The translations under genes were made by a program, and so were the position numbers. The notes beneath the pieces were generated by a model. That model was not told where the DNA came from. It did no database searches and worked only from the letters and a program-made list of their open reading frames with translations. From the NCBI GenBank assembly GCA_934178345.1, contig CAKPQG010000007.1, positions 9,817 through 73,816 of the forward strand: a DNA stretch of 64,000 nt, in the 5' to 3' direction. The stretch comes from an uncultured Dialister sp. GTDB taxonomy: Bacteria; Bacillota; Negativicutes; Veillonellales; Dialisteraceae. Every line of letters begins with the position of its first letter. Within the stretch, counting starts at the first letter, position 1. Positions 3,994-61,370 of this stretch are shown here, piece by piece.

Positions 3994-4335
3994 TTTGGAG
4001 AAGAAGGAGGAAAATGAGGAATGAAGAATGGTGGTGCGGCGCATCATACAATGAAAGCGCTGCGGATTATTGGAATCACGTAAAATGCGTCGCCCCTTGG
4101 AGAAGGGGCAGGCCGAAGGCCAGGGATAGACTGCCTCGAAGAGGCAGATTTCTGCAGAACGGCCAGTAGGCCTCTTGCGGATCACTGAAAAACGATTCAC
4201 GCAGATGGGATGCTGGCAGCTACGTAGAGTTGTGCCCCTGCGGGGCACTCTATCCGGCGCCTTTGGCGCGACCCCTCTCCAGGGGTCTGCTCAGCTCGCG
4301 AGGATTTCCTAATCCCTAGCTACCAGTCACCAGTC
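3994..4335. repeat. mosaic intergenic repeat cluster
   Basis: GGTGGTGCGGCGCATCA box, GCGCTGCGG, GGACTGGTGACTGGTAGCTAGGGATTAGGAAATCC heptads. Confidence 0.8.
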
Positions 4336-4336
4336 C

Positions 4337-5933
4337 CTAATTTTTTCCATTCATCACCATCACGTCTCCCGCTTCGAGTACGGTATCTCCTTTCGGGATG
4401 ATGACTTCTCCTTGTCTTAGGATGAGAACGACAAGATGACCGTGGGGGAGGCGGAGAGAGGAGAGGCTCTTCTGGTAATAGCGGCTCTTCTTCGTGACAT
4501 GGATTTCCGAGAGGGCAAGGCCTGTGACAGGAGCGACGCTCAAAGCAGAAAGGACCAGCGTATCTCCGGCAGAGAGTCTCGTGTCGCCATTCGGGATGAT
4601 CTTCTCGGTGCCGCGGGAAAGAAGGATGGCGAGCGTTTCAGGAGGGAATGCGATCTCTGAGAGTGCCTGCCCGCACCACGCATGCCCGGCGGGCAGGGTG
4701 AACTGGATGAATTGTACCGGCATCTCTTCCGTGTAGTCCGTGAAGGATTTCATGACATCGCTCTCATGATCGATCATAGAGAGCTTCTTCGCTGCGAGCG
4801 GCAGAAGCGCGCCCTGAAAGAGGATGGAAAGAAGAACGATGAAGAAGGTGACATGGAAGACGATGTCATTCACCGGCGCCTGCGTATAAGCGACGATGGC
4901 AAAGACGATGGCGGAAGCCCCGCGAAGGCCTGCGAAGGAGATCAGAGCGCTTGCGGCAGCGGGCGTTTTGAAAGGGGCAAGGAGAGCGAAGACGCCGAGA
5001 GGCCTTGCCACGAAGGTCAGGAAGAGCGCGATGAGGAAGGCAGGCCATGCGATCTCAGGGAGCTTCGATGGCGTGGAGAGAAGCCCCAGCAGGAAGAAGA
5101 TCATCATGGAGAGAAGATTCGTTGCGCCATTGAAGAAATGAACAATCGAGCGCTTTCCGGGGAAATCGCTGTTTCCTAAAATGATGCCGGCAATATAGGC
5201 GGAGAGGTAGCCATTTCCATCCAGCATTGCGGGAGCGGCATAGGCAAAGATAGCGATGGCGGTCAAAAGCACCATGTCGAAGCCGCCTGCGAGATAGTCG
5301 GTCTTTTTCAGCGCCCACTTCGAGATGGCTGCGATGCCGAAGCCGAAGGCAAGCCCGAAAACGATCTGCGCTGCGAGAAGCATGAGCGTCCCCCAAAGGT
5401 CAGCGGAACCATGCATGAGAGAAATGCAGATGATCGTCATCATGTAAGCGGCGGGATCGTTACTGCCGCTCTCTACTTCCAGGAGCGAGGCGGTGTGATA
5501 CTTGAGATTCAGCCTTTTCGCACGGAGGATGGAGAAGACGGATGCAGCATCCGTCGAGGCGATGACCGACCCCATGAGGAAGCTCAGAAGCCATGGTTCG
5601 CCTAGGATGAAGTGGATGAATCCGCCTGTCAAAAGGGCTGTCACGACGACGCCCGCACTCGAAAGTACGATCGCAGGGGCGGCGACAGGCTTTGCCATAG
5701 ACCAGTTCGTCCCGAAGCCTCCGTAGAACATGATAAAGATGAGTGCGGTCGAGCAGATCTCTTCGGCAAAGTTGTAGTTTTCAAAAGCAATATTGATAGG
5801 ACCATCCGAGCCGAAAAACATACCGAGCAGGATAAAGGCGAGAAGCACAGGGATGCCGAGCTTGTCCGAGACACGGTTCAAAAACACACAGGCAAAGATC
5901 ACAATGGCCGTCAAGAGCAGGAAAGAAGTCATA
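4337..5933 (-). CDS. monovalent cation:proton antiporter (CPA1/NhaP-type K+/H+) with a C-terminal TrkA-C (RCK_C) domain
   Basis: About 12 TM N-terminal transporter domain, then a soluble C-terminus with TrkA-C-like repeats (GDTLVLSA..., GDVMVMNG). ATG at 5933 preceded by GGAGA. Confidence 0.75.
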
Positions 5934-5989: not shown

Positions 5990-6340
5990 GAGAGAAAGAA
6001 CAATGGTGGAAGCCGTTTCATGTGTATCGTCATTTCGAGCGAAGTCGAGAAATCCTCCTTGCAGACCGATAAAGGACGCGCGAAAGTAGAAAGAGGCAGC
6101 ACACAGGTGTTGTTTTCTTGGGATGACGACACGGAGAAACCGTATTTTCAACAAGCGCGCGACCAACCCCGTCTCGCTGCGCTCGACTGCCCCTTCCAAA
6201 GGAAGGGGCGAGAATGGTGAATGACGTTCCATCCCCCTAGTCCCTAGTCACAAGTCCCTAGTCACCAGTTACCATTCACTCCCTAATCCCTAACTTTCTT
6301 TTTTGCGCTATAATAGAGACAGGTGTAAAAATAAAAGGAG
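5990..6340. repeat. mosaic intergenic repeat cluster
   Basis: CGTCATTTCGAGCGAAGTCGAGAAATC box, a GCGC box and CCCTAGTCCCTAGTCAC heptads. Confidence 0.8.
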
Positions 6341-9335: not shown

Positions 9336-9712
9336 AAAAGGGTTCAGGGTTAGCTCATGGGACGTGCCGTCCCTTGGTTGTTTGCGAAAAAGGGAGAGCG
9401 GGTTCTATAGGTTCAGAGGGTTCAACGGGGGCGGTGCGGCGCATAAAAATAATGAAGCGCCGCGGAGTTTTGATAGCGCTTCGCGCCGTCGTCATTTCGA
9501 GCGTAGCCGAGAAATCTCTATGGCAGAGCGCTCATTGCCTGATGTGAGACAGCACCAAGACATCGTTTCCCCTCAGTGCATACACGCTGATTTCCGCAGT
9601 GCAGTAGAGATCGAGGGCTACGCTCGGGATGACGATGCCGGAGAATCCCAGTCACCAGTCACTAGTCACCAGTCACTAGTCACTCCTAATCCCCAAACCC
9701 AAAAGCGAATTA
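9336..9712. repeat. mosaic intergenic repeat cluster containing one copy of the palindromic CGTCATTTCGAGCG module
   Basis: GGTTCAGGGTTAG, GGTGCGGCGCATAAAAAT, GCGCCGCGGAG, the CGTCATTTCGAGCGTAGCCGAG...CTCGGGATGACGATG module, and (CAGTCACY)4. Confidence 0.85.
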
Positions 9713-12829: not shown

Positions 12830-13470
12830 CTTTTGGTATAATGGGGTAGGGTTCAGGGGTAGCCCGTGGGGCGTGCTGCCCTTTGATTGGGGATGAAAGC
12901 TTTGCTCGAATGAGGAATTAGGAATGAGGAATTAGGAATGGTGGTGCGGCGCATAAAAATCAGAAGCGCCGCGGAGTTGTGATAGCGCTTCGCGCGCATC
13001 GTCATTTCGAGCGTAGCCGAGGGTCTTTATTGCAGAACGTTCATCGCCTGATATGAGGCAACACCAGGACATCGTTTTCCCTCGGCGCATACACGCTGAT
13101 TCCCGCAATGCACTAAAGATCCCTCGGCTGCGCTCGGGATGACGATGCCGGAGAATCCCAGTCACGCCTAATCCCCAATCCCTAATCCCTAGCCACTCAT
13201 CCCTGTTTTCAAACTTAGCCTCTGGGCGTGCCGCCCTTTGATTACGTGCGAAAGAGGTTCAGTGGGGGAGCAGGTTCGGAGGGTAGGGCGGGGATGGTGC
13301 GGCGCATAAAAACATAGAAGCGCCGCGGAGTATAGATGGTGGCGATGCCCGAAGGCGGTATTCAAGTCACCAGTCACTAGTCACTAGTCGCTCGAGGCTC
13401 CTAATCCCTAGCTACTAATTTTTAGTCACCAGTCACTCACCCCTGATTTCTAGGACTACCCCCCAAAAAA
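12830..13470. repeat. mosaic intergenic repeat cluster with a palindromic CGTCATTTCGAGCG module copy
   Basis: GGGTTCAGGGG, (AGGAATT)n, GGTGGTGCGGCGCATAAAAAT, GCGCCGCGGAG, the 210-bp module, and TAGGGAT/CAGTCAC heptads. Confidence 0.85.
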
Positions 13471-15839: not shown

Positions 15840-15877
15840 AAAGTGATGCTACTTGCGGGCGGCATCACTTTTTTGGT
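15840..15877 (+). terminator. intrinsic terminator
   Basis: AGTGATGC-tacttgcgggcg-GCATCACT followed by TTTTTT. Confidence 0.7.
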
Positions 15878-15879
15878 GA

Positions 15880-16395
15880 CTAAGTGGCTAGTGGCTGGTG
15901 ACTAGTGACTGGTGACTGGTGACTTGTGACTGGTAGCTAGGGATTAGTGGCTAGGGATTAGGATTGCGATATGAGAAAACCGCTAGTTTCAAACCTCCGC
16001 GGCGCTTCCATATTTTTATGCGCCGCACCACCCCCGTTGAACCTTCTGAACCTGTTGAACCCGCTCCCCCTCTTTTGCAAACAATCAAGGAACGAGCCGC
16101 CCACGGGCTAACCCTGAACCCTGAAGTTTGAAAGCAGGGATGAGTAGCTAGGGATTAGGGATTGGGGATTAGGAGTGACTAGTGACTGGTGACTAGTGAC
16201 TTGAATACCGCCTTCGGGCATCGCCCTATTTATACTCTGCGGCGAAGCCGCCACCTTCATTCCTCATTCCTAATTCCTAATTTATGCGAAGCTTTCATCC
16301 CCAATCAAAGGGCGGCACGCCCCCGAGGCTAACCCTGAACCCTGAACCCTGAACCCTGAACCCTGAACCCTAAATAACCTTGTCAAGCAAAACCC
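15880..16395. repeat. mosaic intergenic repeat cluster with about 1.5 copies of the roughly 255-bp composite unit
   Basis: Heptad blocks, GCGGCGCTTCCATATTTTTATGCGCCGCACCACC, (GAACCTNTT)n, CAAAGGGCGGCACGCCC, and (CCCTGAA)5 at 16329-16372. Confidence 0.85.
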
Positions 16396-21714: not shown

Positions 21715-22255
21715 TTTGCGCGGAATCCATGGAACCTGTTATCTCTTATAGTTTGAAGGCAGGGACTAGTGGCCAGGGGTTAGGAGTGACTAGTGACTGG
21801 TGACTGGTATTGCGGTTTCTCAATAACTGGCATTTAAGTCTACTTCCGAATCAAGTGAGGAGTGAGGAATGAAGGTACGGTGCATAAAAATCAGTAGCGC
21901 CGCGGAATTTTGATAGCGCTTCGCGTCGTCGTCATCTCGAGCGTAGCCGAGAGATCTCTATGGCAGTACGGGAATCAGCATGTATGCGCCATTTCATCAA
22001 CGACGTTTTTGTTCTGCATCTTTCTTTTATCTCGCACTGACTTCTTACCGTTGTGCAAGAAAGATCGAGGGCTTCGGTCGGAATGACGATACGAGAGTCC
22101 CGTTCATCTAAAATTTACGGCGCTTTCCTATTTTTATGCGCCGCACCACCACTCCTCACTCCTCACTAGATAGCATGAGGCTTTCAAGCGCCATCAAGGG
22201 ACAGCACGTCCCACGGATATCCCCCCACCCGGCTTGTGGGGGGCTTTTTTTATTG
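21715..22255. repeat. mosaic intergenic repeat cluster, variant using (GAGGAGT)n heptads, with a divergent copy of the palindromic module and a terminal GC hairpin plus T-run
   Basis: GCGCCGCGGAATTTTGATAGCGCTTCGCG; a GTCGTCATCTCGAGCGTAGCCGAGAGATC module; TTTTATGCGCCGCACCACCACTCCTCACTCC; CCCCCCACCCGGCTTGTGGGGGGCTTTTTTT. Confidence 0.8.
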
Positions 22256-31194: not shown

Positions 31195-31303
31195 GTAAAC
31201 AAAAGGAAATCACCATTGGCCGTGATGATTCCACTCATTGTTACAAATCTTTCTCAACAACTCCAAACACCTCTAAAAAGCCTCCCTTCGGGGAGGCTTT
31301 AGG
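31195..31303 (+). ncRNA. candidate small RNA (about 105 nt) or very small ORF transcript
   Basis: Bounded by the promoter above and the AAAAAGCCTCCC-ttcg-GGGAGGCTTT hairpin. A possible 29-aa TTG-start ORF with an AAAGGAA RBS is embedded. Confidence 0.35.
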
Positions 31304-31325
31304 CGTTTCATAGGGAAAACGAATG

Positions 31326-31372
31326 TAAAAAGGCGGTGTGACAAAACATACAGTTTTTGTCACACCGCCTTT
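31326..31372. terminator. bidirectional terminator downstream of mscL
   Basis: AAAAAGGCGGTGTGACAAAA-cataca-GTTTTTGTCACACCGCCTTT. Confidence 0.75.
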
Positions 31373-31390
31373 GCTGGCGAAAGAGACGTT

Positions 31391-31819
31391 TCAGAGTTGT
31401 GCTGTGCAGTGCGGGCAGCGGGTCGCATCATCTGCGATCGCTTCTTTGCAGTAGGGGCACTTTCTGATTTCCTTTGGCGGAGCTTTCGGGAAGAAATGAT
31501 TGATCTGCTTGATGGCGATAAAGATGACGAAAGCAATGATCAGGAAATCAATGACTGCATTCAGAAATTCTCCATAGGCGATGACCGGGACGCCGAGCTC
31601 TTTCGCTTCTGCGAGCGTGGAGACCGGAGTGCCGCCTAAGGTGATGAAAAGACTGGAGAAGTCGATACCGCCCAAAAGGTAGCCCAGCGGGGGCATGATG
31701 ACATTGCTGACCAGGGAAGAAACGATTTTTCCGAATGCAGCGCCGATGACGACACCGACTGCCATGTCTACCACATTGCCGCGAAGGGCAAAGTCTTTGA
31801 ATTCTTTGAGCATACCCAT
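31391..31819 (-). CDS. mscL: large-conductance mechanosensitive channel MscL with a C-terminal CxxC...CxxC zinc-ribbon extension
   Basis: [31 protein letters not shown]-terminus typical of MscL. C-terminal [18 protein letters not shown]. Confidence 0.85.
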
Positions 31820-31969
31820 GAGGGAACGTCTCCTTTCTAAAAAATAAAGAAATTATTTTCCATATCTTACCATAAGTGAAGGAACGTTGGGAAGAGTATA
31901 AAAATAGCGAATCGCCCAAAAGGAGAGACTCTGACAGGGGGGACACAGAGGAAAGAGATACTTGCTTTC

Positions 31970-32011
31970 CAGGGAAACACAGATTCTGCGATTGAATCAG
32001 CGTTTCCCTGG
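31970..32011. mobile_element. short-form MITE-like element (TIR pair), followed by a T-run
   Basis: CAGGGAAACACAGATT...GATTGAATCAGCGTTTCCCTG then TTTTTTTT. Confidence 0.55.
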
Positions 32012-32029
32012 GATTTTTTTTAGAGAAAT

Positions 32030-32058
32030 TTGACATATTCCTTTATCCATGCTATAGT
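32030..32058 (+). promoter_or_regulatory. strong sigma-70 promoter (TTGACA-17-TGcTATAGT)
   Basis: Consensus -35, 17-nt spacer, extended -10. Confidence 0.65.
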
Positions 32059-32063
32059 ATGTC

Positions 32064-32320
32064 CAATAAGCGATGAAGAAAAAGAGTACGCAGGGATTTC
32101 TTCTCATAGCGAGTCCGGACAGTGCAAGCGGGCAGAGAAACTTTGCTGAAGTGCGTTTCAGAGCCAGGAGACCGAAATGAAGTAGGCTCTTCCGGGGATT
32201 CCCGTTACAGGATCAGAGTCTGCTTGGACTTAGAGAGGCCGATGCGGTGACGCAGCGGTGAAATTGGGTGAGAATCACGAGTCTTTCGTCCCATGGGGGA
32301 GGAAGGGCTTTTTTGTTGCC
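32064..32320 (+). promoter_or_regulatory. candidate T-box riboswitch leader
   Basis: Stem-I base GCGATGAAGAAAAAGAGTA (GNUGA/AG-box K-turn pattern as in glyQS-type T-boxes). F-box-like CCGTTA at 32202-32207. Degenerate T-box-like AAATTGGGTGAGAATCACGAG at 32261-32280. Terminator hairpin GTCTTTCGTCCC-atg-GGGGAGGAAGGGC plus TTTTTT at 32281-32316. Confidence 0.45.
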
Positions 32321-32334
32321 TGAAATGGGCTGAG

Positions 32335-32530
32335 AGTGCATGGCTTTTTATACTGCGCGCGTATGAAAAGTTTGAAAGCAGGGATGAGTGGCTAGGGATT
32401 AGTAGCTAGGGATTAGGGGCGCAAAGTGCCTGGTGACTGGCGATTAGTGATTTGAATACTACTTTGGGGTATCATCCCCGTTGAACCTGTAGAACCTACA
32501 GAACCCATTGAACCTCTTTCCAACAGCACG
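32335..32530. repeat. mosaic repeat cluster inserted between the T-box-like leader and the transporter ORF
   Basis: AAGTTTGAAAGCAGGGATGAGTGGCTAGGGATTAG box, heptads, and (GAACCTNTA)n. Confidence 0.8.
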
Positions 32531-32571
32531 CCTCATGGGCTACTCGGTTATGACTAAAGGAGGAAAAAGAT

Positions 32572-33852
32572 ATGAATAAAAATGAGGATGTCAAAAACTT
32601 AGCACAGAGCGTGCTGAAAGAGCACCAGACCAAGAAGCAGGGACGGCAGTTTGTTCTCTGGATTCTGGCATTGGTCGTGGGGGCTGCCCTTGGTTGGCTT
32701 GGGATCAAGCCTTTGAATGAGCTCTTTAATTTTATCGCGACGGTCTTCACCCGTTTGTTCCAGTTTATCGCGGTACCGACGATCGCGCTCGCTGTCATCA
32801 CGACACTGGCTGCTCTCGGCGGCAAGAAGGAAACCGGCCGCATTTTTGCACACGCAGTCGTCTACACGCTTCTCACCACCGTCTTTGCAGCGGGCATCGG
32901 GCTTGCGATGTATCTCTGGGTGACACCGGGGAATCTGCCAACGGATCTGGCAAGTGCAGGGGCTTCGAGCGTGCCGCAGAAGCTGGGAACGGTCACCTAC
33001 TATGACCACATCCTGAATGTCATTCCGAATAACATTCTGCAGCCATTCCTGTCTGGCAATGTACTTGCTGTCATGCTGATCGCCGCATCCTTCGGCCTCG
33101 GGCTTGCCTTCATGCCGAAGACGGAGAATCGCGAAGTCCTCCTGAAGGGCATCCTTGGTTTTCAGGAGCTTCTCTTTACGCTGATCAAAGCGCTTCTCGC
33201 CATTCTTCCTGTCGGCATTCTGGCCTTTGCAGGGCAGCTCTCTGCCCAGATTGAAGCAGGGGTCATCGTAGGGGCGCTCGGGAAATATACGCTCGTCATC
33301 ATGGCCAGCAACGGGATCCAGTTCTTCCTCGTCCTGCCGCTCTTCCTCTTGGCTCGCGGACTGAATCCGATCGATGTTTTCAAGAAAATGTCTCCTGCCA
33401 TTGCGGTCGCTCTCTTCACCAAGAGCTCGGCAGGCACACTCCCTGTCACGCTGGCCTCGGCAGAGAAGAATCTCAAGGCGGATCCGGCGGTTTCCCGCTT
33501 CGTACTTCCGATCTGCACGACCATCAACATGAATGGATGTGCGGCCTTCATACTGATCACTTCGCTCTTCGTCATGCAGAATGCAGGGATTGAACTTTCG
33601 ATGACGACCATGCTCACATGGCTCATCGTCGCAGTACTCGCCGCTGTCGGCAATGCAGGCGTACCGATGGGATGCTACTTCCTGACGCTCTCTCTCATGA
33701 GCGGTATCGGCGCGCCGATCGGCATCATGGGGCTCATCCTTCCGATCTATACCATCATCGATATGATCGAGACGGCAGAGAATGTCTGGTCTGACTCCTG
33801 CGTCTGCGCGATGACGGATCATGATCTGAAAGGGAAATTGAATCACGAATAG
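32572..33852 (+). CDS. dicarboxylate/amino acid:cation symporter (DAACS family)
   Basis: 426 aa, multi-TM with DAACS-like re-entrant loop motifs (SSAGTLPVT, NMNGCAAF); AAAGGAGG RBS. Confidence 0.75.
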   Translation: MNKNEDVKNLAQSVLKEHQTKKQGRQFVLWILALVVGAALGWLGIKPLNELFNFIATVFTRLFQFIAVPTIALAVITTLAALGGKKETGRIFAHAVVYTLLTTVFAAGIGLAMYLWVTPGNLPTDLASAGASSVPQKLGTVTYYDHILNVIPNNILQPFLSGNVLAVMLIAASFGLGLAFMPKTENREVLLKGILGFQELLFTLIKALLAILPVGILAFAGQLSAQIEAGVIVGALGKYTLVIMASNGIQFFLVLPLFLLARGLNPIDVFKKMSPAIAVALFTKSSAGTLPVTLASAEKNLKADPAVSRFVLPICTTINMNGCAAFILITSLFVMQNAGIELSMTTMLTWLIVAVLAAVGNAGVPMGCYFLTLSLMSGIGAPIGIMGLILPIYTIIDMIETAENVWSDSCVCAMTDHDLKGKLNHE

Positions 33853-33890
33853 AAAAACCGCTGTCCGAATGGTTTCGGACAGCGGTTTTT
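33853..33890 (+). terminator. intrinsic terminator
   Basis: AAAAACCGCTGTCCGAA-tgg-TTTCGGACAGCGGTTTTT. Confidence 0.8.
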
Positions 33891-33894
33891 AGGT

Positions 33895-34430
33895 GAGGTT
33901 CAGGGTTAGCCCCGGGGGCGTGCCGCCCTTTGATCGGGGATGAAAGCTTCGCATAAATTAGGAATTAGGAATGCGGAATTAGGAATGAAGGTGGCGGCTT
34001 CGCCGCAGAGTATAAATAGGGCGATGCCCGAAGGCGGTATTTAAGTCACTAGTCACCAGTCACCAGTCACTCCTAATCCCCAATCCCTAATCCCTAGCTA
34101 CTCATCCCTGCTTTCAAACTTGTGGTGGCGGCTTCGCCGAGATCCTTCGACTCAGGTCGCAGCTGTTCTGGCATTCGTTATCTCACCTACGACGTTTCTC
34201 GCCGCTCAGAATGACGAAACGGGGCGATGCCCGAAGGTCTCTTGATAGCAGGTTTCTCTCGTATCGCCAGCCTTCCCCTCTAGGGGAAGATGCCCCGTAG
34301 GGGCGGATAGGGTGACTATGGTATGAAAGATCAATGATCGGATGTCTAATAGTTCCTAATCCCTAGCCACTAATCCCTAGCTACCAGTCACCAGTCACTA
34401 GTCACTCCTAATCCCCAATCCCTAGTTACT
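33895..34430. repeat. mosaic intergenic repeat cluster
   Basis: GGTTCAGGGTTAGCCCCGGGGGCGTGCCGCCCTTTGAT, (AATTAGG)n, GGTGGCGGCTTCGCCGC, GGGCGATGCCCGAAGGCGG hairpin box, and heptad blocks. Confidence 0.85.
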
Positions 34431-34431
34431 C

Positions 34432-35442
34432 TCATTGCTCTACTGCTTTTCGGAGCGCCATGAGATTTTCTTCCGGCGCGGACGGATTGACGACGCAACC
34501 GGGGCCCAGGATGAGGCCTTTGCCATCCACCTGCGCGATCGCGTCCTTGACGTGCGCTGTGATCTCTGCCGGCGACCCGTCGAGGATGATATCGTCATAC
34601 TTGAGGACACCGTCTACGAAGTAAGGTGCGGACTTGATGCCGGCTAAAAGGCACTTGTCTGTGAGGGCACGGGCTTCCGCCAGAGATGGGAAGGTATGGC
34701 GGTCATGCCAGTTGATGCAGTTGATGGGGTAGTCTGCGATTTCCTGAAAATAAATGTCTTCCCCATGGATGTGAGCGACATTGAACCAGGTTTTCTTGGC
34801 GTAGGAGCGGATGACCTGCAGGTCGTAGAAGGCACCGAATTCCTGAAATTCAGCGGGGGTAAGCATCGGGCGAACGGCATTCTGCGTGGCAAAGAAGAAG
34901 CCGTCGACGCCGGCATCGATGTTGTAGCTGACGAAGTCAAGCGTGGTCGCCGTGATGGCCGCGAGGGCATGGTGGACGGCTTTCGGGATGGTCTTGATGT
35001 CTTCCAGAAGGCGATCGCCTGCCATTTTCTTCAGGGTGGAGAATGGCGAGAAGATGGTCTGAATGATCGGCGTGCCGGCTTTTCTGCGCTTTGCGAGTTC
35101 GCGGGCAAATTCGATCTGCTTGCCGTAGGTACCCTGAATGGCAGGAATGGCACGGACAGTATCGTAGTCTTCTTCGCTCTGAATGGCGAATTTTTTCACA
35201 ATCGGTTCTTTGTGTGCGTCGCAGTAAATGGTGATCTGGTTTCCAAAGTCCTGCGTGCTGTACAGCCCGAAGGGCATCATTTTGATATAGTCGAAGTCAT
35301 ATTTTTCTGTGAGGTCGACTTCTGCCTCGGCAAGGGAAATCGGATCCTGGTCGAATGCGGAGAGGTGCATCCAGGCAGCGACCGGTACGCGGTCGACTTC
35401 TTTGCCGGCAAGGGCGGCTCTGACTCGTTCTTCTCTATTCAT
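34432..35442 (-). CDS. uroporphyrinogen-decarboxylase (URO-D)-fold protein, MtaA/CmuA-like methylcobamide methyltransferase family
   Basis: 337 aa; URO-D family length and motif pattern. ATG 35442 with an AAAGGAG RBS. Confidence 0.6.
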   Translation of the reverse strand: MNREERVRAALAGKEVDRVPVAAWMHLSAFDQDPISLAEAEVDLTEKYDFDYIKMMPFGLYSTQDFGNQITIYCDAHKEPIVKKFAIQSEEDYDTVRAIPAIQGTYGKQIEFARELAKRRKAGTPIIQTIFSPFSTLKKMAGDRLLEDIKTIPKAVHHALAAITATTLDFVSYNIDAGVDGFFFATQNAVRPMLTPAEFQEFGAFYDLQVIRSYAKKTWFNVAHIHGEDIYFQEIADYPINCINWHDRHTFPSLAEARALTDKCLLAGIKSAPYFVDGVLKYDDIILDGSPAEITAHVKDAIAQVDGKGLILGPGCVVNPSAPEENLMALRKAVEQ

Positions 35443-35499: not shown

Positions 35500-35955
35500 A
35501 GAAAGGGGAACATGGTATAATGAGCAATATATACTTTGCAGCGACGCTGCCGCTACAAGTTTGAAAGCAGGGATGAGTGGCTAGGGATTAGGAGTGACTA
35601 GTGACTGGTGACTAGTGACTAGGAAATTCCCGTATCGTCATTTCGAGCGCAGTCGAGGGATCTTTACTGCACTGCGGGAATCAGCGTGTATGCGCCGAGG
35701 GAAAATGATGCCCTGGTGCTGCCTCACATCAGACGATGAACGTTCTGCAATAAAGACCCTCGGCTACGCCCCTCTGACGACGGCGCGAAGTGCTATCAAA
35801 ATTCTGCGGCGCTTCCATATTTTTATGCGCCGCACCACCATTTCGCATTTCTCATTTCTAATTTCTCATTCAAGCGAGTCTTTCACCCACAATCAAAATG
35901 GCAGCACGCCCCACGGACTAACCCAGAACCCTGAACCCGACAGCCTTTAAATTTA
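35500..35955. repeat. mosaic intergenic repeat cluster with an inverted copy of the palindromic module
   Basis: AAGTTTGAAAGCAGGGATGAGTGGCTAGGGATTAGGAGTGACTAGTGACTGGTGAC; reverse-orientation CGTCATTTCGAGCGCAGTCGAGGGATCTTTACTGCA module; TTTTTATGCGCCGCACCACC. Confidence 0.85.
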
Positions 35956-40539: not shown

Positions 40540-41050
40540 TACAGGGATGAGTGTCTAGGGATTAGGAGCCTCGAGTGACTGGTAGCTAGGGATTAGTGGC
40601 TAGGGATTAGGTTTGCGATACGAGAAAACCGCTAGTTTCAAACCTCCGCGGCGCTTTTGATTTTTATGCGCCGCACCGACCCCTTTGAACCTTTTGAACC
40701 TATAGAACCCGATGAACCTCTTTCACACGCAATCAAAGGGCAGCAACGCCCCGAGGGGCTAACTCTGAACCCTGAACCCTGAAGTTTGAAAGCAGGTATG
40801 AGTGGCTAGTGACTAGTGATTGGTAGCTAGGGATTAGTAGCTAGGGATTAGGTTTGCGATACGAGAAAACCGCCAGTTTCAAACCTCTGCGGCGCTTCTA
40901 TTTTTTATGCGCCGCACCACCCCCTTTGAACCTCTTGAACCTATAGAACCCGCTGAACCTCTTTCGCACGTAATCAAAGGGCAGCACGCCCCGTGGTCTA
41001 ACCCTGAACCCCGAACCCCGAACCCTGAACCCCGAACCCTGAACCCTAAA
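40540..41050. repeat. direct tandem duplication (2 copies) of the roughly 255-bp composite repeat unit
   Basis: Unit: GATGAGTG...CTAGGGATTAG heptads, TTTGCGATACGAGAAAACCGCTAGTTTCAAACCTCCGCGGCGCTTYTGATTTTTATGCGCCGCACC, (GAACCTNTT)n, CAAAGGGCAGCACGCCCCG, (CCCTGAA/CCCCGAA)n. Copies at about 40545-40795 and 40796-41048. Confidence 0.85.
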
Positions 41051-46849: not shown

Positions 46850-47110
46850 ATCTGAAGTTTGAAAGCAGGGATGATTAGTAGCCAGGGATTAGTGGCTAGG
46901 GATTAGGAGCCTCGAGCGACTGGTGACTAGTGACTTAAATACCGCCTTCGGGCATCGCCACCATCTATACTCCGCGGCGCTTCTATTTTTTTATGCGCCG
47001 CACCACCCCCTTTTAAACCCTCTGAACCTAAAGAACCCGCTGAACCTCTTTCGCACGCAATCAATGGGTGAAGCCGCCCCAAGGGCTAACCCTAAAACCT
47101 GAACCCATCA
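46850..47110. repeat. mosaic intergenic repeat cluster
   Basis: AAGTTTGAAAGCAGGGATGATTAGTAGCCAGGGATTAG, GCGGCGCTTCTATTTTTTTATGCGCCGCACCACC, (GAACCNNNN)n, and GGCTAACCCTAAAACCTGAACCC. Confidence 0.85.
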
Positions 47111-48149: not shown

Positions 48150-48610
48150 GGGGGAGGGTTAGCCCGTGGGGCGTGACGTCCACTGATTATGAATGAAAGC
48201 TTTGCTCGAATGAGGAATTAGGAATGAGGAATTAGGAATGAAGGTGGCGGCTTCGCCGCGAATATATATGGGGCGATGCCCGAAGGTGGTATTTAGTCAC
48301 CAGTCACTAGTCCCTAGCCACTCCTAATCCCCAATCCCTAATCCCTAGCCACTCATCCCTGCTTTCAAACTTCAAACTTCAAGGTTCAGGGTTAGCCTCT
48401 GGGCGTGTCGCCCCTTGCCTGTTTGCGAAAGAGGTTCAGCAGGTTCTATAGGTTCAACGGGGGTGGTGCGGCGCATAAAAATATGGAAGCGCCGCGGAGG
48501 TTTGAAACTAGCGGTTTTCTCGTATCGCAAACCTAATCCCTAGCTACTAATCCCTAGCTACCAGTCACCTGTAATGCCTGACTGCTAAGCTCAGCCCTTT
48601 GTCCAAACAA
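48150..48610. repeat. mosaic intergenic repeat cluster (about 1.7 inverted copies of the composite unit)
   Basis: Reverse-orientation versions of the same boxes as in 40540-41050 and 15880-16395. Confidence 0.85.
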
Positions 48611-51479: not shown

Positions 51480-51700
51480 CGGGAATACAGGCTTTCTTTT
51501 TTGTGAAACGCTTCTCGAAAAAGTGAGGAGTGAGGAATTAGGAGTGAGGAGTGTTGGAAGGGGCGCATAATTCATAAAGCGCCCCAATGCCCCTTTTTAT
51601 ATTTCACGGCGCCTCCTTATTTTATGCGCCGTACCTCCACTCCTAACTCCTCATTCCTAACTCCTAACTTCTCGCTTGCTATGGGATATAGCAAGATGAT
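51480..51700. repeat. mosaic intergenic repeat cluster (GAGGAGT-heptad variant)
   Basis: (GTGAGGA)n, TTATTTTATGCGCCGTACCTCCACTCCTAACTCC. Confidence 0.75.
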
Positions 51701-52419: not shown

Positions 52420-52730
52420 GGGAGGCTTGGGGTTAGCCCAAGGGGCGGGGCGCCCATGGATTGCGGATGAAAGCCTCTCTCGAATGAGAAATGAGAAATG
52501 CGAAATGGTGGTGCGGCGCATAAAAATCAGAAGCGCCTCGGAGGTTTGAAATTAGCGATTTTCTCGTATCGCAAACCTAATCCCTAGCCACTAGTCACTA
52601 GCCACTAGCCACTAGCCACTAGTCACTAGTTACTAGTCACTAGTCACCAGTCACCAGTCACTCAAGGCCACTCATCCCTAATCCCAGATTTAGAACCTAT
52701 TACCTATGGGGGCATGCATAGGCGGCCATG
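52420..52730. repeat. mosaic intergenic repeat cluster with a roughly 10-copy (CACTAGY) heptamer tract
   Basis: Heptamer tract at 52588-52662; GGTGGTGCGGCGCATAAAAAT and GCGCCTCGGAG boxes. Confidence 0.85.
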
Positions 52731-54719: not shown

Positions 54720-54990
54720 GTGGCTGGTGACTAGGGACTGGGGGCTAGGGATTAGGAGTCTCAAGTGACTGGTGACTAGTGACTGGTAGCTAGGGATTAG
54801 TGGCTAGGGATTAGGTTTGCGATACGAGAAAATCGCTAATTTCAAACCTCCGCGGCGCTTCTGATTTTTATGCGCCGCACCACCATTCCTAATTCCTCAT
54901 TCCTAATTCCTCATTCGCGCAAAGCTTTCATTCATAATCAGTGGACGGAGCCGCCCGAGGGGCTAACCCTTGAATCCGACAACCTTTATT
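54720..54990. repeat. mosaic intergenic repeat cluster
   Basis: Heptads; TTTGCGATACGAGAAAATCGCTAATTTCAAACCTCCGCGGCGCTTCTGATTTTTATGCGCCGCACCACC; (ATTCCTA)n. Confidence 0.85.
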
Positions 54991-55173
54991 TTTTTACTTG
55001 ACGCGCACTGATTTCTGTAGTATCATATCTCTTGTAATTGATTGCAAGCAGAAGTCATCCGCTTCTCACCTTACATGGCGCAGGCTACTAAGGTTTACGT
55101 ATGAACTCAAGGCGGACGGCACATGCTGTCCGCCTTTACACTTGCAATGATTTCTATTTCGGAGGTGAAAAGA

Positions 55174-59389: not shown

Positions 59390-60700
59390 ATGGACTCTTT
59401 ATTCGACATGTCCCCGGAGGCGGGGAAGCGGTATGCCCCCTTGGCGGATCGCATGCGCCCCAGGCGGCTTGAAGACATCGTCGGACAGGACGGTGCCGTT
59501 GGACGGCAGTCATTCCTTTATCGCATGATAGAGCGGGATACGATCCCATCTCTTCTTCTTTTTGGCCCGCCAGGATGCGGGAAGACGACGATCGCATCGG
59601 TCATTGCAGAAATGACGAAGAGCTGTTTCGTCAAGGTGAATGCGACCTCGAGCGGGATCAAAGAAATCCGGGATGTGGTTTCCAAGGCGAAAGAGGAGCT
59701 TTCGTATTACCAGCGGCGGACGATCGTTTTCATCGATGAAATCCACCGGTTCAATAAGGGGCAGCAGGATGTGCTTCTGCCTTATGTGGAGGATGGGACA
59801 TTCATCCTCATCGGTGCGACGACGGAGAATCCTTATTTTGAAATCAATGGGCCGCTGCTCTCCCGTCTGCGGCTGATCCATCTGAAGCGACTTACTGATG
59901 AAGCGATCATCTCGGTGCTTCATCGCGCGCTCGATGATGAAAAGAATGGACTGGCCATTCATCGCTATACGGCAAAACCAGAGGCACTCTCTCTCATTGC
60001 TGCCTATGCCTCCGGGGATACGCGCGTCGCGCTGAATCTCTTGGAACAGTCGACATCCATGCTGAGGGATGGAGGCTCTCTGACAGAAAAGGAAATCGGC
60101 GAGGTGGCAGGTGTTCAGATCTCCAGCTATGATAAGCAGGGGGACTATCATTACAATATCGTCTCTGCCTTCATCAAGAGCATGCGAGGGAGTGATCCTG
60201 ATGCAGCGCTGCACTATCTGGCGCGCATGATCGATGGAGGGGAGAAGACGTCTTTCATTTCACGCCGCATCATGATTTGTGCGGCGGAAGATGTAGGCCT
60301 TGCGGATCCGCGAGCGCTGCAGGTGGCGGTATCAGCGGCGCAGGCGGCGGAAATGGTCGGCTTTCCTGAGTCGCAGATCATCCTTGCGGAAGCCGTGCTC
60401 TATATTTGCCTCGCGCCGAAGAGCAACAGCGCCTGCTCTGGCATTTTTGCCGCCGAAGGGGAGGAAAAGACAAGAAAGGACTGGTCCATCCCCGCGCACC
60501 TCATGGACTCGCACTACAGCGGAGCGAAGAAAATGGGGCTTGGCATCGGATATAAGTATCCTCACGATTTCGGTGGATGGGTAGAGCAGCAGTATCTTCC
60601 TGATGAGCTCGTAGGACACCAGTACTACAAGCCCCGCCCGCTCGGGCAGGAAGGCGACATGGTGCGCGCCTGGTGGGCGAGAAGAAAGGGAAGTAAGTGA
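59390..60700 (+). CDS. rarA: replication-associated recombination protein A (RarA/MgsA AAA+ ATPase)
   Basis: GPPGCGKTT Walker A, FIDEIHRFNK Walker B/sensor, MgsA C-terminal domain. Confidence 0.88.
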   Translation: MDSLFDMSPEAGKRYAPLADRMRPRRLEDIVGQDGAVGRQSFLYRMIERDTIPSLLLFGPPGCGKTTIASVIAEMTKSCFVKVNATSSGIKEIRDVVSKAKEELSYYQRRTIVFIDEIHRFNKGQQDVLLPYVEDGTFILIGATTENPYFEINGPLLSRLRLIHLKRLTDEAIISVLHRALDDEKNGLAIHRYTAKPEALSLIAAYASGDTRVALNLLEQSTSMLRDGGSLTEKEIGEVAGVQISSYDKQGDYHYNIVSAFIKSMRGSDPDAALHYLARMIDGGEKTSFISRRIMICAAEDVGLADPRALQVAVSAAQAAEMVGFPESQIILAEAVLYICLAPKSNSACSGIFAAEGEEKTRKDWSIPAHLMDSHYSGAKKMGLGIGYKYPHDFGGWVEQQYLPDELVGHQYYKPRPLGQEGDMVRAWWARRKGSK

Positions 60701-60704
60701 CTGG

Positions 60705-60968
60705 TGACTGGAATGCCAACTCATGGCACCACCATTTCGCATTTCTCATTTCTCATGCAATCGAGGCTTTCAAACGTAATCAAGGGGCGAGCCGCCCCAC
60801 GGACTAAGTTTGAAAGCAGGGACGAGTAGCTAGGGATTAGGGATTGGGGATTAGGAGTGACTGGTGGCTGGTGACTGGGATTTCTCCGGCATCGTCATCC
60901 CGAGCGCAGCCGAGGATCTTTACTGCACTGCGGGAATCAGTGTGTATGCGCCGAGGGAAAAAGATGTC
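60705..60968. repeat. mosaic repeat cluster (left part) containing a palindromic-module copy that is interrupted by a MITE
   Basis: GGTGGTGCCATGA, heptads, CATCGTCATCCCGAGCGCAGCCGAGGATCTTTACTGCACTGCGGGAATCAGTGTGTATGCGCCGAGGGAAAAAGATGTCC up to the MITE insertion point. Confidence 0.8.
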
Positions 60969-61135
60969 CTAGGGAAACGCTGATTAAATCGCAGAGTCGA
61001 ATTTCATATGGATTTTTATACATAGCTTCGTCATCATCTTCCTTAAATAGCTCGCTATTCGCGTCAGATGATTCCTTGCTCTGTATAAAAATCCAAGAAT
61101 GAAATCTGACAACGATTTAATCAGTGTTTCCCTAG
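60969..61135. mobile_element. 167-bp MITE-like element, inverted relative to copy 28916-29082, nested inside a palindromic-module repeat
   Basis: TIRs CTAGGGAAACGCTGATTAAATCG and CGATTTAATCAGTGTTTCCCTAG. The interior is about 95% identical to the reverse complement of the 28916-29082 copy. Flanking sequence continues the interrupted module. Confidence 0.85.
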
Positions 61136-61370
61136 TGCTGCCTCCCATCAGGCGATGACCGTTCTGCAATAAAGACCCTCGGCTACGCTCGAAATGACGA
61201 TGCGCCGCGCGAAGCGCTATCAAAATTCCGCGGCGCTTCTGATTTTTATGCGCCGCACCTTCATTCCTAATTCCTCATTCCTAATTCCTCATTCAAGCAG
61301 AGCTTTCATATACAATCAAGGGACAGCACGTCCCCGGGGCTAACCCTGCACCTGCACCTAATAAAGGAGA
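61136..61370. repeat. mosaic repeat cluster (right part, continuation of the interrupted module)
   Basis: TGCTGCCTCCCATCAGGCGATGACCGTTCTGCAATAAAGACCCTCGGCTACGCTCGAAATGACGATG; GCGCCGCGCGAAGCGCTATCAAAATTCCGCGGCGCTTCTGATTTTTATGCGCCGCACC; (TTCCTAA)n. Confidence 0.8.

Follow-up and report, generated by a model that had tools for sequence, protein, structure and literature searches.

We examined a 64,000-nucleotide stretch of DNA from an uncultured Dialister sp. (contig CAKPQG010000007.1, positions 9,817 to 73,816 of the forward strand; hereafter the window), in which a promoter, a structured leader of 250 nt, a terminator, a spacer of 258 nt and the open reading frame of a transporter follow one another on the + strand. 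Our analysis favors, at a probability of about 0.75, the interpretation that this leader is a functional class-I (transcription-attenuating) T-box riboswitch for tRNA-Cys, which controls a monocistronic amino-acid:cation symporter of the SDF/DAACS family in a gut Dialister species. The interpretation draws on the architecture of the leader, on covariation in its helices, on an invariant UGC triplet, on competition between terminator and antiterminator and on purifying selection, all of which were observed, as was strain polymorphism of the spacer.

Architecture of the leader

A preliminary description of this DNA, made from the letters alone, had proposed a T-box leader upstream of a DAACS transporter gene, and both parts of the proposal held. 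The match of the leader to the Rfam T-box model RF00230 is full-length, covering model positions 1-219 at 90.3 bits, with an E value of 3e-20 locally and of 2.4e-18 over the whole window. The product of the gene matches PF00375 at 297.7 bits over residues 30-417, which is the full-length domain of the SDF/DAACS family (TC 2.A.23). The consensus promoter described earlier was likewise recovered, with 11 of 12 positions matched. The coordinates of all features are collected in Table 1.

At 32070-32088 lies the base of Stem I, GCGAUGAAGAAAAAGAGUA, which corresponds in the alignment to gCgaUGAaagGGAaaAGUA of the T-box consensus and forms the K-turn base GCGAUGA/GAGC; the stem also has the helix GAAA/UUUC. 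Helices 1 to 5 are 78-100% paired and carry compensatory changes. This base had been likened to that of glyQS-type T-boxes. The K-turn base is indeed present, but the leader is not of the glyQS type, since it also has Stems II, IIA/B and III. In the helix of Stem II (helix 6), four of the seven pairs showed compensatory change and 92% were paired, with a register shifted by one nucleotide and supported by nine of nine leaders, in place of that given by the covariance model, which contained two A·C mismatches. The S-turn of Stem II (GAA...AGUA loop) and a Stem IIA/B with an F-box are both present; the CCGTTA that had been called F-box-like is this F-box. Compensatory change was seen in all eight pairs of Stem III (95.8% paired), which has been wholly rebuilt between lineages with its pairing kept, and the flanks of this stem conform to the RRRxG...AA motif as defined by Zhang (PMC7583486). 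Over nine diverged Dialister leaders, 92.4% of cells were paired and 24 of 44 pairs had changed on both sides, i.e. in a compensatory manner. None of 500 shuffles was as good, and only 34-53% were paired when the partner was slid by 1-3 columns.

The degenerate T-box sequence and the good terminator after it, both noted previously, were confirmed. The antiterminator alone folds at -5.6 kcal/mol. The 5' arm of the terminator overlaps the 3' half of the antiterminator and the two structures are thus mutually exclusive; an equivalent terminator is found in every bulge class described below. The minimum-free-energy fold of the whole leader was uninformative (z -1.6), with the terminator form dominating. 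Matches to HCV_SLVII and microRNA models in the leader and spacer were rejected as chance hits or palindrome artefacts.

These features are largely those of class-I T-boxes of the B. subtilis tyrS type (Stem I-II-IIA/B-III), with which the Dialister leader has in common the K-turn, S-turns, AG bulge, distal loop, F-box and Stem III flanks, as well as the T-box sequence, the exclusive antiterminator and terminator with its U-tract, and a specifier followed by a purine. Compared to class I of RF00230, the bulge of this leader is of 8 nt with an interrupted UGG (UGAGAAUC) rather than the 7-nt UGGNACC, and its A2 helix ends in an A-U rather than a G-U pair.

The specifier and the tRNA ligand

In the covariance-model alignment, the consensus GAA-a-uuc-a-CCcu is represented in the leader by GAA-G-UGC-G-UUUC. 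As the 3' side of the specifier loop thus reads GAA-G-UGC-G, with a purine next, the specifier is UGC (Cys). This triplet fits the canonical frame of the TBDB rule, which puts the specifier at a distance of 2-4 nt from the 3' end of its loop (PMC7778990). The sequence GAAGUGC(R) was invariant across all Dialister leaders examined, and tRNA-Cys is, on this codon, the most likely ligand. The candidates proposed earlier, AUG(A) or GUA(G) within GAAAUGAAGUAGG, had to be abandoned: this segment (32174-32186) is the S-turn loop of Stem II, and UGC is the specifier by both the covariance-model alignment and the comparison of nine orthologous leaders.

If the loop were read in another frame, the specifier would be GUG (Val) or GCR (Ala) and the transporter would serve a different amino acid. 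Some members of the SLC1/DAACS family transport small neutral amino acids; in the +1 frame GCG and GCA are both Ala codons, and the U of the UGGU found in one bulge class (class 3, below) would pair with A73 of tRNA-Val or tRNA-Ala. Both the -1 and the +1 frames are considered by TBDB (PMC7778990). However, the geometry of codon, purine and helix gives UGC-R in all leaders, with the G/A variation at the conserved purine position of T-boxes, and GUG would precede a C rather than a purine. The canonical UGGA of class 2 fits the presumed U73 of tRNA-Cys. UGC is also the codon used by Cys T-boxes (PMC2940859), and we regard a specifier in either of the other frames as very unlikely. A literature search on Cys T-boxes in Negativicutes found nothing specific.

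The acceptor-binding bulge

The UGGN that pairs with the tRNA acceptor had been described as degenerate (UGAG), and this was confirmed. In place of a 7-nt bulge with UGGN at its 5' edge, the leader has the 8-nt bulge UGAGAAUC, whose UGG is either interrupted or altered at its second G. Four classes of bulge were found among Dialister leaders. Class 1, UGAGAAUC, is that of the window's species and was fixed in 58 of 58 leaders of its type. Class 2 is UGGAAAC, a canonical bulge of 7 nt (L003, L004 and L087), while class 3, UGGUAAUC, and class 4, UGUGAAUC, are of 8 nt and belong to the D. succinatiphilus group and to L166 plus ten other contigs, respectively. Class 4 was found by a metagenome scan in which the two critical bulge positions were left free. 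In L166, which represents a second species-level lineage, the T-box (4224-4463, - strand) scores 96.8 bits, above the Rfam cutoff, and an 86%-identical SDF transporter starts 77 nt downstream of it; the same bulge was also seen in L094, L105, L110, L130, L133, L154, L155 and L170. Of 120 metagenome matches to the bulge pattern, 34 were set aside that had no hit to the leader hidden Markov model (HMM) and lay in other contexts. Among 86 Dialister-type leaders, the two free positions were AG (53), GU (22) or UG (11) and nothing else, each fixed per lineage.

In the covariance model, the A of class 1 and the U of class 4 are an insertion at one shared spot inside UGG. As this extra nucleotide is A or U, neither of which pairs with C74, and the next G-A never varies, the bulge is most simply read as UG(x)GA, x being extruded. 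UGAGAAUC would then best be read as UG(A)GA, with the pairs U-A76 and G-C75, one extruded nucleotide, and the pairs G-C74 and A-U73. All four classes (UGAGA, UGUGA, UGGUA and UGGA) retain an A able to pair with U73, although in the 8-nt classes one nucleotide has to be extruded for this A to become available to the presumed U73. For class 3, either UGG(U)A or a canonical UGG with a U·U mismatch at the discriminator is a possible reading.

The same bulges could instead belong to a functional Cys T-box with a continuous acceptor helix of 4 bp, U-A76, G-C75, A·C74 (U·C74 in class 4) and G·U73, that has been weakened to tune the induction threshold. In support, classes 1, 4 and 3 (UGAGAAUC, UGUGAAUC and UGGUAAUC) are all of 8 nt and align without gaps, and wobble at the discriminator is documented for Trp T-boxes (PMC7778990). 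Two of the four pairs would be non-canonical, however, and very little pairing energy would be left. Moreover, at position 3 one lineage has A where another has U. Neither base pairs with C74, whereas extrusion of this position would let the conserved G-A that follows complete a set of four Watson-Crick pairs. A continuous helix thus appears unlikely, and extrusion of one nucleotide is the reading that we prefer.

In the transporter tree, class 1 lies next to or within class 2, and classes 4 and 3 branch earlier. The interrupted bulge is therefore either ancestral and was then repaired in class 2, or has arisen more than once. We give about even odds to the wider proposal that a clade of gut Dialister keeps, under purifying selection, T-boxes whose acceptor tetranucleotide is split by one extra nucleotide (UG-A-GA, UG-U-GA and possibly UGG-U-A) in an 8-nt bulge. 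A predicted specifier without a canonical UGGN is also what defines 48 T-boxes in TBDB, which the paper describes no further (PMC7778990); compared to these, the Dialister form is fixed, is under purifying selection and occurs in two lineages as UG-N-GA.

Conservation of the leader and selection

By Rfam, a T-box lies directly 5' of the transporter ortholog in every Dialister lineage sampled, with scores of 81.1-98.0 bits, some of them above the cutoff. Orthologous leaders without the repeat insertion found in the window's spacer, a comparison that the preliminary description had called for, have the same T-box and bulge directly upstream of the transporter ortholog. Rfam detected neither a T-box nor another riboswitch upstream of the gene in 27 orthologous loci from outside Dialister (Phascolarctobacterium, Selenomonas, Megasphaera, Veillonella, Anaerovibrio, Acidaminococcus, Fibrobacter and others), and no T-box was found by the Dialister leader HMM or a regular expression for T-box motifs at any of the 75 non-Dialister orthologs in searches over all 91 loci. 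The TPP and ZTP riboswitch models had hits in L020 and L067, which were discarded as unrelated, being located downstream or on the opposite strand.

We compared divergence along the locus within the clade that carries UGAG, which comprises the window, L001, L081/L082, L002 and L083. The leaders differ at 2-7 of 250-254 nt (p = 0.008-0.028). The intergenic region 5' of the promoter has diverged by 0.18-0.22, with indels, and the spacer 3' of the terminator by 0.19-0.22; synonymous divergence (pS) of the transporter gene, which is intact, is 0.11-0.22, with a dN/dS of 0.01-0.03. The difference between leader and spacer is significant by Fisher's exact test (p about 1e-8). Genomes and metagenomes gave 58 class 1 leaders in 27 haplotypes, and 16 sites of the 233-nt T-box vary among them. 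The specifier, the F-box and the T-box sequence are free of such sites; at four of the sites, the change produces a Watson-Crick pair from a G-U pair or mismatch. The TTGACA and the -10 core of the promoter are unchanged in five Dialister leaders. As the divergence of the leader is far below that of its flanks and of synonymous sites and its key motifs are invariant, the leader, including its odd bulge, is under purifying selection and hence not decaying.

Decay had been raised earlier as a possibility. In such a case, the change of G to A in UGG would abolish acceptor pairing and leave a locked-off T-box, with a constitutive or leaky terminator, on its way to loss. UGG is nearly invariant in known T-boxes, the Rfam score is slightly under the cutoff and repeats have invaded the spacer of this strain, all of which would agree with decay. 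Yet the leader stands out by its conservation: its divergence is 8-10 times lower than that of the non-coding flanks on either side and of the synonymous sites, where differences reach about 20%. The odd bulge is fixed throughout the 27 haplotypes and unchanged in strains that lack the repeat insertion, and a second lineage is fixed for a related form. The low dN/dS of the transporter is also hard to square with a gene silenced by a terminator of -19.7 kcal/mol. We thus consider a decaying T-box to be highly improbable.

Replacement of the spacer by a repeat mosaic

The spacer between the terminator and the transporter gene is a strain-specific mosaic of dispersed repeat modules, each of which recurs from 4 to at least 9 times in the window. 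In L083, a relative with 96% identity, and in four assemblies from the window's species, the corresponding spacer is of 112-126 nt and does not resemble the 258 nt of the window. That of L081 matches the window at 32314-32327 and 32558-32571 alone. Because homology stops at 32327 and restarts at 32558, about 85 nt of ancestral spacer have been replaced by about 230 nt. An insertion of 190 bp at 32335-32530 had been reported here; the repeat cluster is real and is lacking from other strains of the species, but it spans 32328-32557 and replaces ancestral sequence rather than being a simple insertion. Across Dialister lineages, the length of the spacer ranges from 54 to 318 nt and the stretch evidently tolerates insertions. 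In L004, from another Dialister species, the same spacer holds a different insertion, a near-perfect palindrome of 80 nt (2249-2328) that hits microRNA models on both strands.

Could the mosaic have rewired expression, bringing a promoter or terminator of its own and uncoupling the transporter from the T-box in this strain, as had also been suggested? A foreign segment of 230 nt does sit between the terminator and the ribosome-binding site, and such repeats are dispersed among intergenic regions. However, a scan of 32316-32571 on the + strand revealed nothing that resembles a promoter or terminator, the segment folds no better than shuffled sequence (z -0.9), and in the minimum-free-energy fold the ribosome-binding site stays single-stranded. 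A TPP-riboswitch hit over the spacer (20.3 bits, E 0.21) was dismissed as being at chance level. The T-box is, moreover, as conserved here as in strains free of the insertion. Rewiring is therefore extremely unlikely, and we regard the mosaic as a probably neutral, strain-specific passenger that lengthens the 5' untranslated region (UTR) and does nothing else.

The transporter and its predicted substrate

The transporter falls below all NCBIfam equivalog cutoffs, with scores of 80-110 bits against DctA, GltP and SstT models whose cutoffs are 308-638. Its homologs in the Protein Data Bank match over almost the full length at E values of 1e-44 to 1e-29, and it shares the fold family of GltPh, GltTk, the bacterial aspartate transporter 9bgz, EAAT1-3 and ASCT1/2. 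In the motif DMIETAENVWSD, the equivalents of Asp394, Thr398, Asn401 and Asp405 are kept. In contrast, the arginine that binds the side-chain carboxylate in GltPh-type transporters (Arg397 equivalent) is a glutamate in the Dialister protein (DMIET vs DMART), and the NMDGT of characterised DAACS members is NMNGC; the altered sites are at residues about 322-327 and 395-407. This atypical binding site argues against aspartate or glutamate as the substrate but does not by itself point to the real one. Substrate and ion coupling probably differ, to judge from these residues, from those of all characterised DAACS members. Among Negativicutes the subfamily is widespread: Veillonella, Selenomonas, Megasphaera and Phascolarctobacterium have orthologs of 70-83% identity. 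Within this ortholog group, the T-box is confined to Dialister.

A regulatory precedent is found in Clostridium perfringens, where cysP1 (CPE0947) and cysP2 (CPE0967) encode Na+/H+ symporters that are controlled by Cys T-boxes and induced 7- to 15-fold on cysteine limitation (PMC2940859). For the cysP2 leader, premature termination was demonstrated by Northern blot (André et al. 2010, PMC2940859). A UGC specifier, transcription termination, a monocistronic secondary amino-acid symporter and the logic of induction by uncharged tRNA-Cys are all as proposed here for Dialister. The hosts differ, Dialister being a member of the Negativicutes and C. perfringens of the Clostridia. Unlike class 1 of Dialister, the cysP1 and cysP2 T-boxes carry the canonical motif AATTAGAGTGGAACC (UGGA), and the two systems are linked by regulatory analogy alone. 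By this analogy, the Dialister transporter most likely imports cysteine, cystine or a close source of sulfur amino acid.

Locus organization and other features of the window

The promoter, with its -10 hexamer at 32053-32058, was the sole good + strand promoter within 31300-34500. The transporter gene is flanked by a divergent MscL gene and a convergent gene of the URO-D family and is therefore monocistronic. The hairpin that closes its transcript probably terminates in both directions. The transporter of the uncultured Dialister sp. UMGS543 (L001) is 99% identical to that of the window.

A strong hairpin with a U8 tract adjoins the -35 element on its 5' side. It is on the + strand, yet no + strand gene ends upstream of it, and it is missing in strains L002 and L083 (an alignment gap with L083). 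An insulating terminator and a mobile hairpin element are both possible identities, and we treat the hairpin as context outside the switch. MicroRNA-model hits in it were spurious and came from the palindrome. Further upstream, the MscL homolog (31391-31819, - strand) has a C-terminal extension with a CxxC...CxxC motif that resembles a zinc ribbon (Zn_ribbon_3, 22.6 bits vs a cutoff of 27). In several Dialister species, a cluster of Val-Glu-Asn-Val tRNA genes lies just 5' of the unit of T-box and transporter, at the place of the MscL gene in the window's species.

Table 1. Features of the T-box locus, its surroundings and the repeat family. Positions are those of the window unless another locus is named.
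Feature	Position	Strand	Evidence or remark
Hairpin with U8 tract, 5' of the -35 element	31967-32020	+	fold -26 kcal/mol, z -5.3
Sigma-70-type promoter TTGACA-17-TATAGT with upstream TG (extended -10)	32030-32058	+	11/12 positions
T-box leader: Stems I, II, IIA/B, III, antiterminator	32064-32296	+	RF00230, covariation
Stem I: K-turn base, specifier loop with AGUA/GAA S-turn, AG bulge (AGCGAG), distal loop	32070-32164	+	covariance-model alignment
Specifier codon UGC (Cys), then purine G32155 and helix UUUC	32152-32154	+	covariance-model alignment
Stem II (32167-32173/32186-32192), S-turn loop GAAAUGAAGUA, then Stem IIA/B with F-box	32167-32207	+	
F-box CCGUUA	32202-32207	+	
Stem III: 8 pairs, GUGA loop, 5' flank AGAGG, 3' flank AA	32239-32258	+	covariation
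T-box sequence AAAUUGGGUGAGAAUCACGAG	32261-32281	+	
Antiterminator: A1 (UGGG/CCCA), 8-nt bulge UGAGAAUC (32269-32276), A2 (ACGA/UCGU)	32265-32293	+	
Intrinsic terminator: hairpin 32279-32310, U6 tract 32309-32314	32279-32314	+	-19.7 kcal/mol
Strain-specific spacer mosaic of dispersed repeat modules	32328-32557	+	comparison with same-species assemblies
35-nt module	32368-32402	+	recurs at least 9 times in the window, 94-100% identity
Heptamer/14-mer arrays	32380-32452	+	
GAACCT-type units	32476-32520	+	
Ribosome-binding site AGGAGG, 8 nt 5' of ATG	32558-32563	+	kept in same-species strains
SDF/DAACS-family transporter, 426 aa, regulated gene (predicted)	32572-33852	+	PF00375
Perfect 17-bp hairpin with T-run closing the transporter transcript	33853-33890	+	inverted repeat; kept in L001, L081, L082
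Downstream repeat clusters of the same family	33900-34425		presence varies between strains
Heptamer-cluster sites (examples)	6235-6292, 9648-9695, 12908-13436, 15874-16371, 21786-22167, 33956-34424, 35557-35938		
Heptamer-cluster sites (further examples)	40543-41047, 46855-47052, 48208-48568, 51522-51669, 52483-52680, 54720-54916, 60697-61294		
Val-Glu-Asn-Val tRNA cluster	L003 608-1188, L005 1-598, L092 8917-9403, L166 6123-6891		

The repeats of the spacer belong to a larger, genome-wide family. About 25 intergenic sites in the window hold clusters of tandem heptamers mixed with longer conserved modules, and their presence varies between strains. About 60 arrays have a period of 7, 14 or 21, and the heptamer units include GTGACTG/A, TAGGGAT, AACCCTG, GAATGAG/GAATTAG (GAATKAG), AGTGAGG and CATTTCT. 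TAGGGATTAG gave 49 hits against 2.5 expected and GTGACTGGTGACT gave 68 against 0.8. The cluster downstream of the transporter gene is partly an inverted copy of the upstream one (32368-32443 vs 34046-34121, 80% complementary). In cyanobacteria, short tandemly repeated heptamers (STRR) also occur in intergenic clusters. The Dialister repeats are STRR-like in that tandem 7-nt units form dispersed intergenic clusters far above chance; the TAACTGA repeats of Beggiatoaceae (PMC4679880) are alike in this and also come in several sequence types. The Dialister repeats differ from both in unit sequence and phylum and in being mixed with longer non-heptamer modules. A literature search found no report of heptamer repeats in Dialister.

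Elsewhere in the window, at 55040-55147 (+ strand), a full-length match to the ribosomal protein L20 leader RF00558 also lies under its cutoff (46.7 bits vs 58.7; E 4.6e-06). It is probably another real cis-regulatory RNA of this genome missed by a curated cutoff.

Discussion

Several points weigh against a functional tRNA-Cys T-box in front of this gene. An Rfam covariance scan, as proposed in the preliminary description, returned a full-length match with a significant E value, but the score is 2.7 bits short of the gathering cutoff. As this cutoff (93 bits) exceeds the score, the default scan of the whole window at the gathering threshold reported a tRNA-Leu alone, and the T-box surfaced under an E-value threshold. 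Known T-boxes are described as invariably carrying UGGN at the 5' edge of a bulge of 7 nt (PMC7583486), and the canonical UGGN was not found in only 48 of about 23,500 T-boxes in TBDB (PMC7778990). C74 normally pairs with the second G of UGG, which is missing from its canonical place, and function with an interrupted UGG is a prediction. The terminal pair of A2 is A-U, where the consensus has the G-U of the steric sensor. Read canonically, UGGUAAUC of class 3 has U at the N position, which would be a mismatch to U73 unless another base were extruded. We take U73 to be the discriminator of tRNA-Cys, in line with the known identity elements of this tRNA. Neither the window nor any of the Dialister loci retrieved yielded a tRNA-Cys gene; the tRNA genes near the locus are Leu, Val, Glu and Asn. 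The residues of the binding site differ from those of characterised homologs and no equivalog is reached, so that the substrate assignment is likewise predicted. Finally, the conservation analysis reveals constraint on the leader and not its cause. Despite the score narrowly under the Rfam cutoff and the departure from a canonical UGGN in a 7-nt bulge, we conclude that the leader probably works as a T-box and is by descent a member of the T-box family.

We propose the following mechanism. Transcription would start about 6 nt past the -10 hexamer, and Stem I would offer its specifier to the GCA anticodon, with Stems II, IIA/B and III rounding out the scaffold for tRNA binding. An uncharged tRNA would stabilise the weak antiterminator and allow RNA polymerase to read through, such that the transporter is made. 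When the tRNA is charged, the far more stable terminator would form instead.

The element lies just under the Rfam cutoff and is thus left unannotated by standard pipelines in this abundant gut species. The Cys specifier in front of an uncharacterised SDF subfamily provides a testable hypothesis on substrate, namely the uptake of cysteine or cystine. As the strain comparison shows, mosaics of dispersed heptamer repeats come and go in 5' UTRs while the riboswitch next to them stays undisturbed. The regulatory logic proposed here is ordinary and has precedent, whereas an interrupted acceptor site kept by selection would be a small but real surprise for T-box specialists. In structural work on T-boxes, UGGN at the 5' edge of the 7-nt bulge is considered invariant and is credited with the stacking by which A1 is stabilised. 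If our reading of the bulge is true, the helix formed by the tRNA 3' end with the T-box, thought to need an uninterrupted UGGN stacked on A1, works with an extruded base, and this base may tune the sensitivity of the switch. The selected natural variants of Dialister would then be ready test cases for the effect of distortion in this helix.

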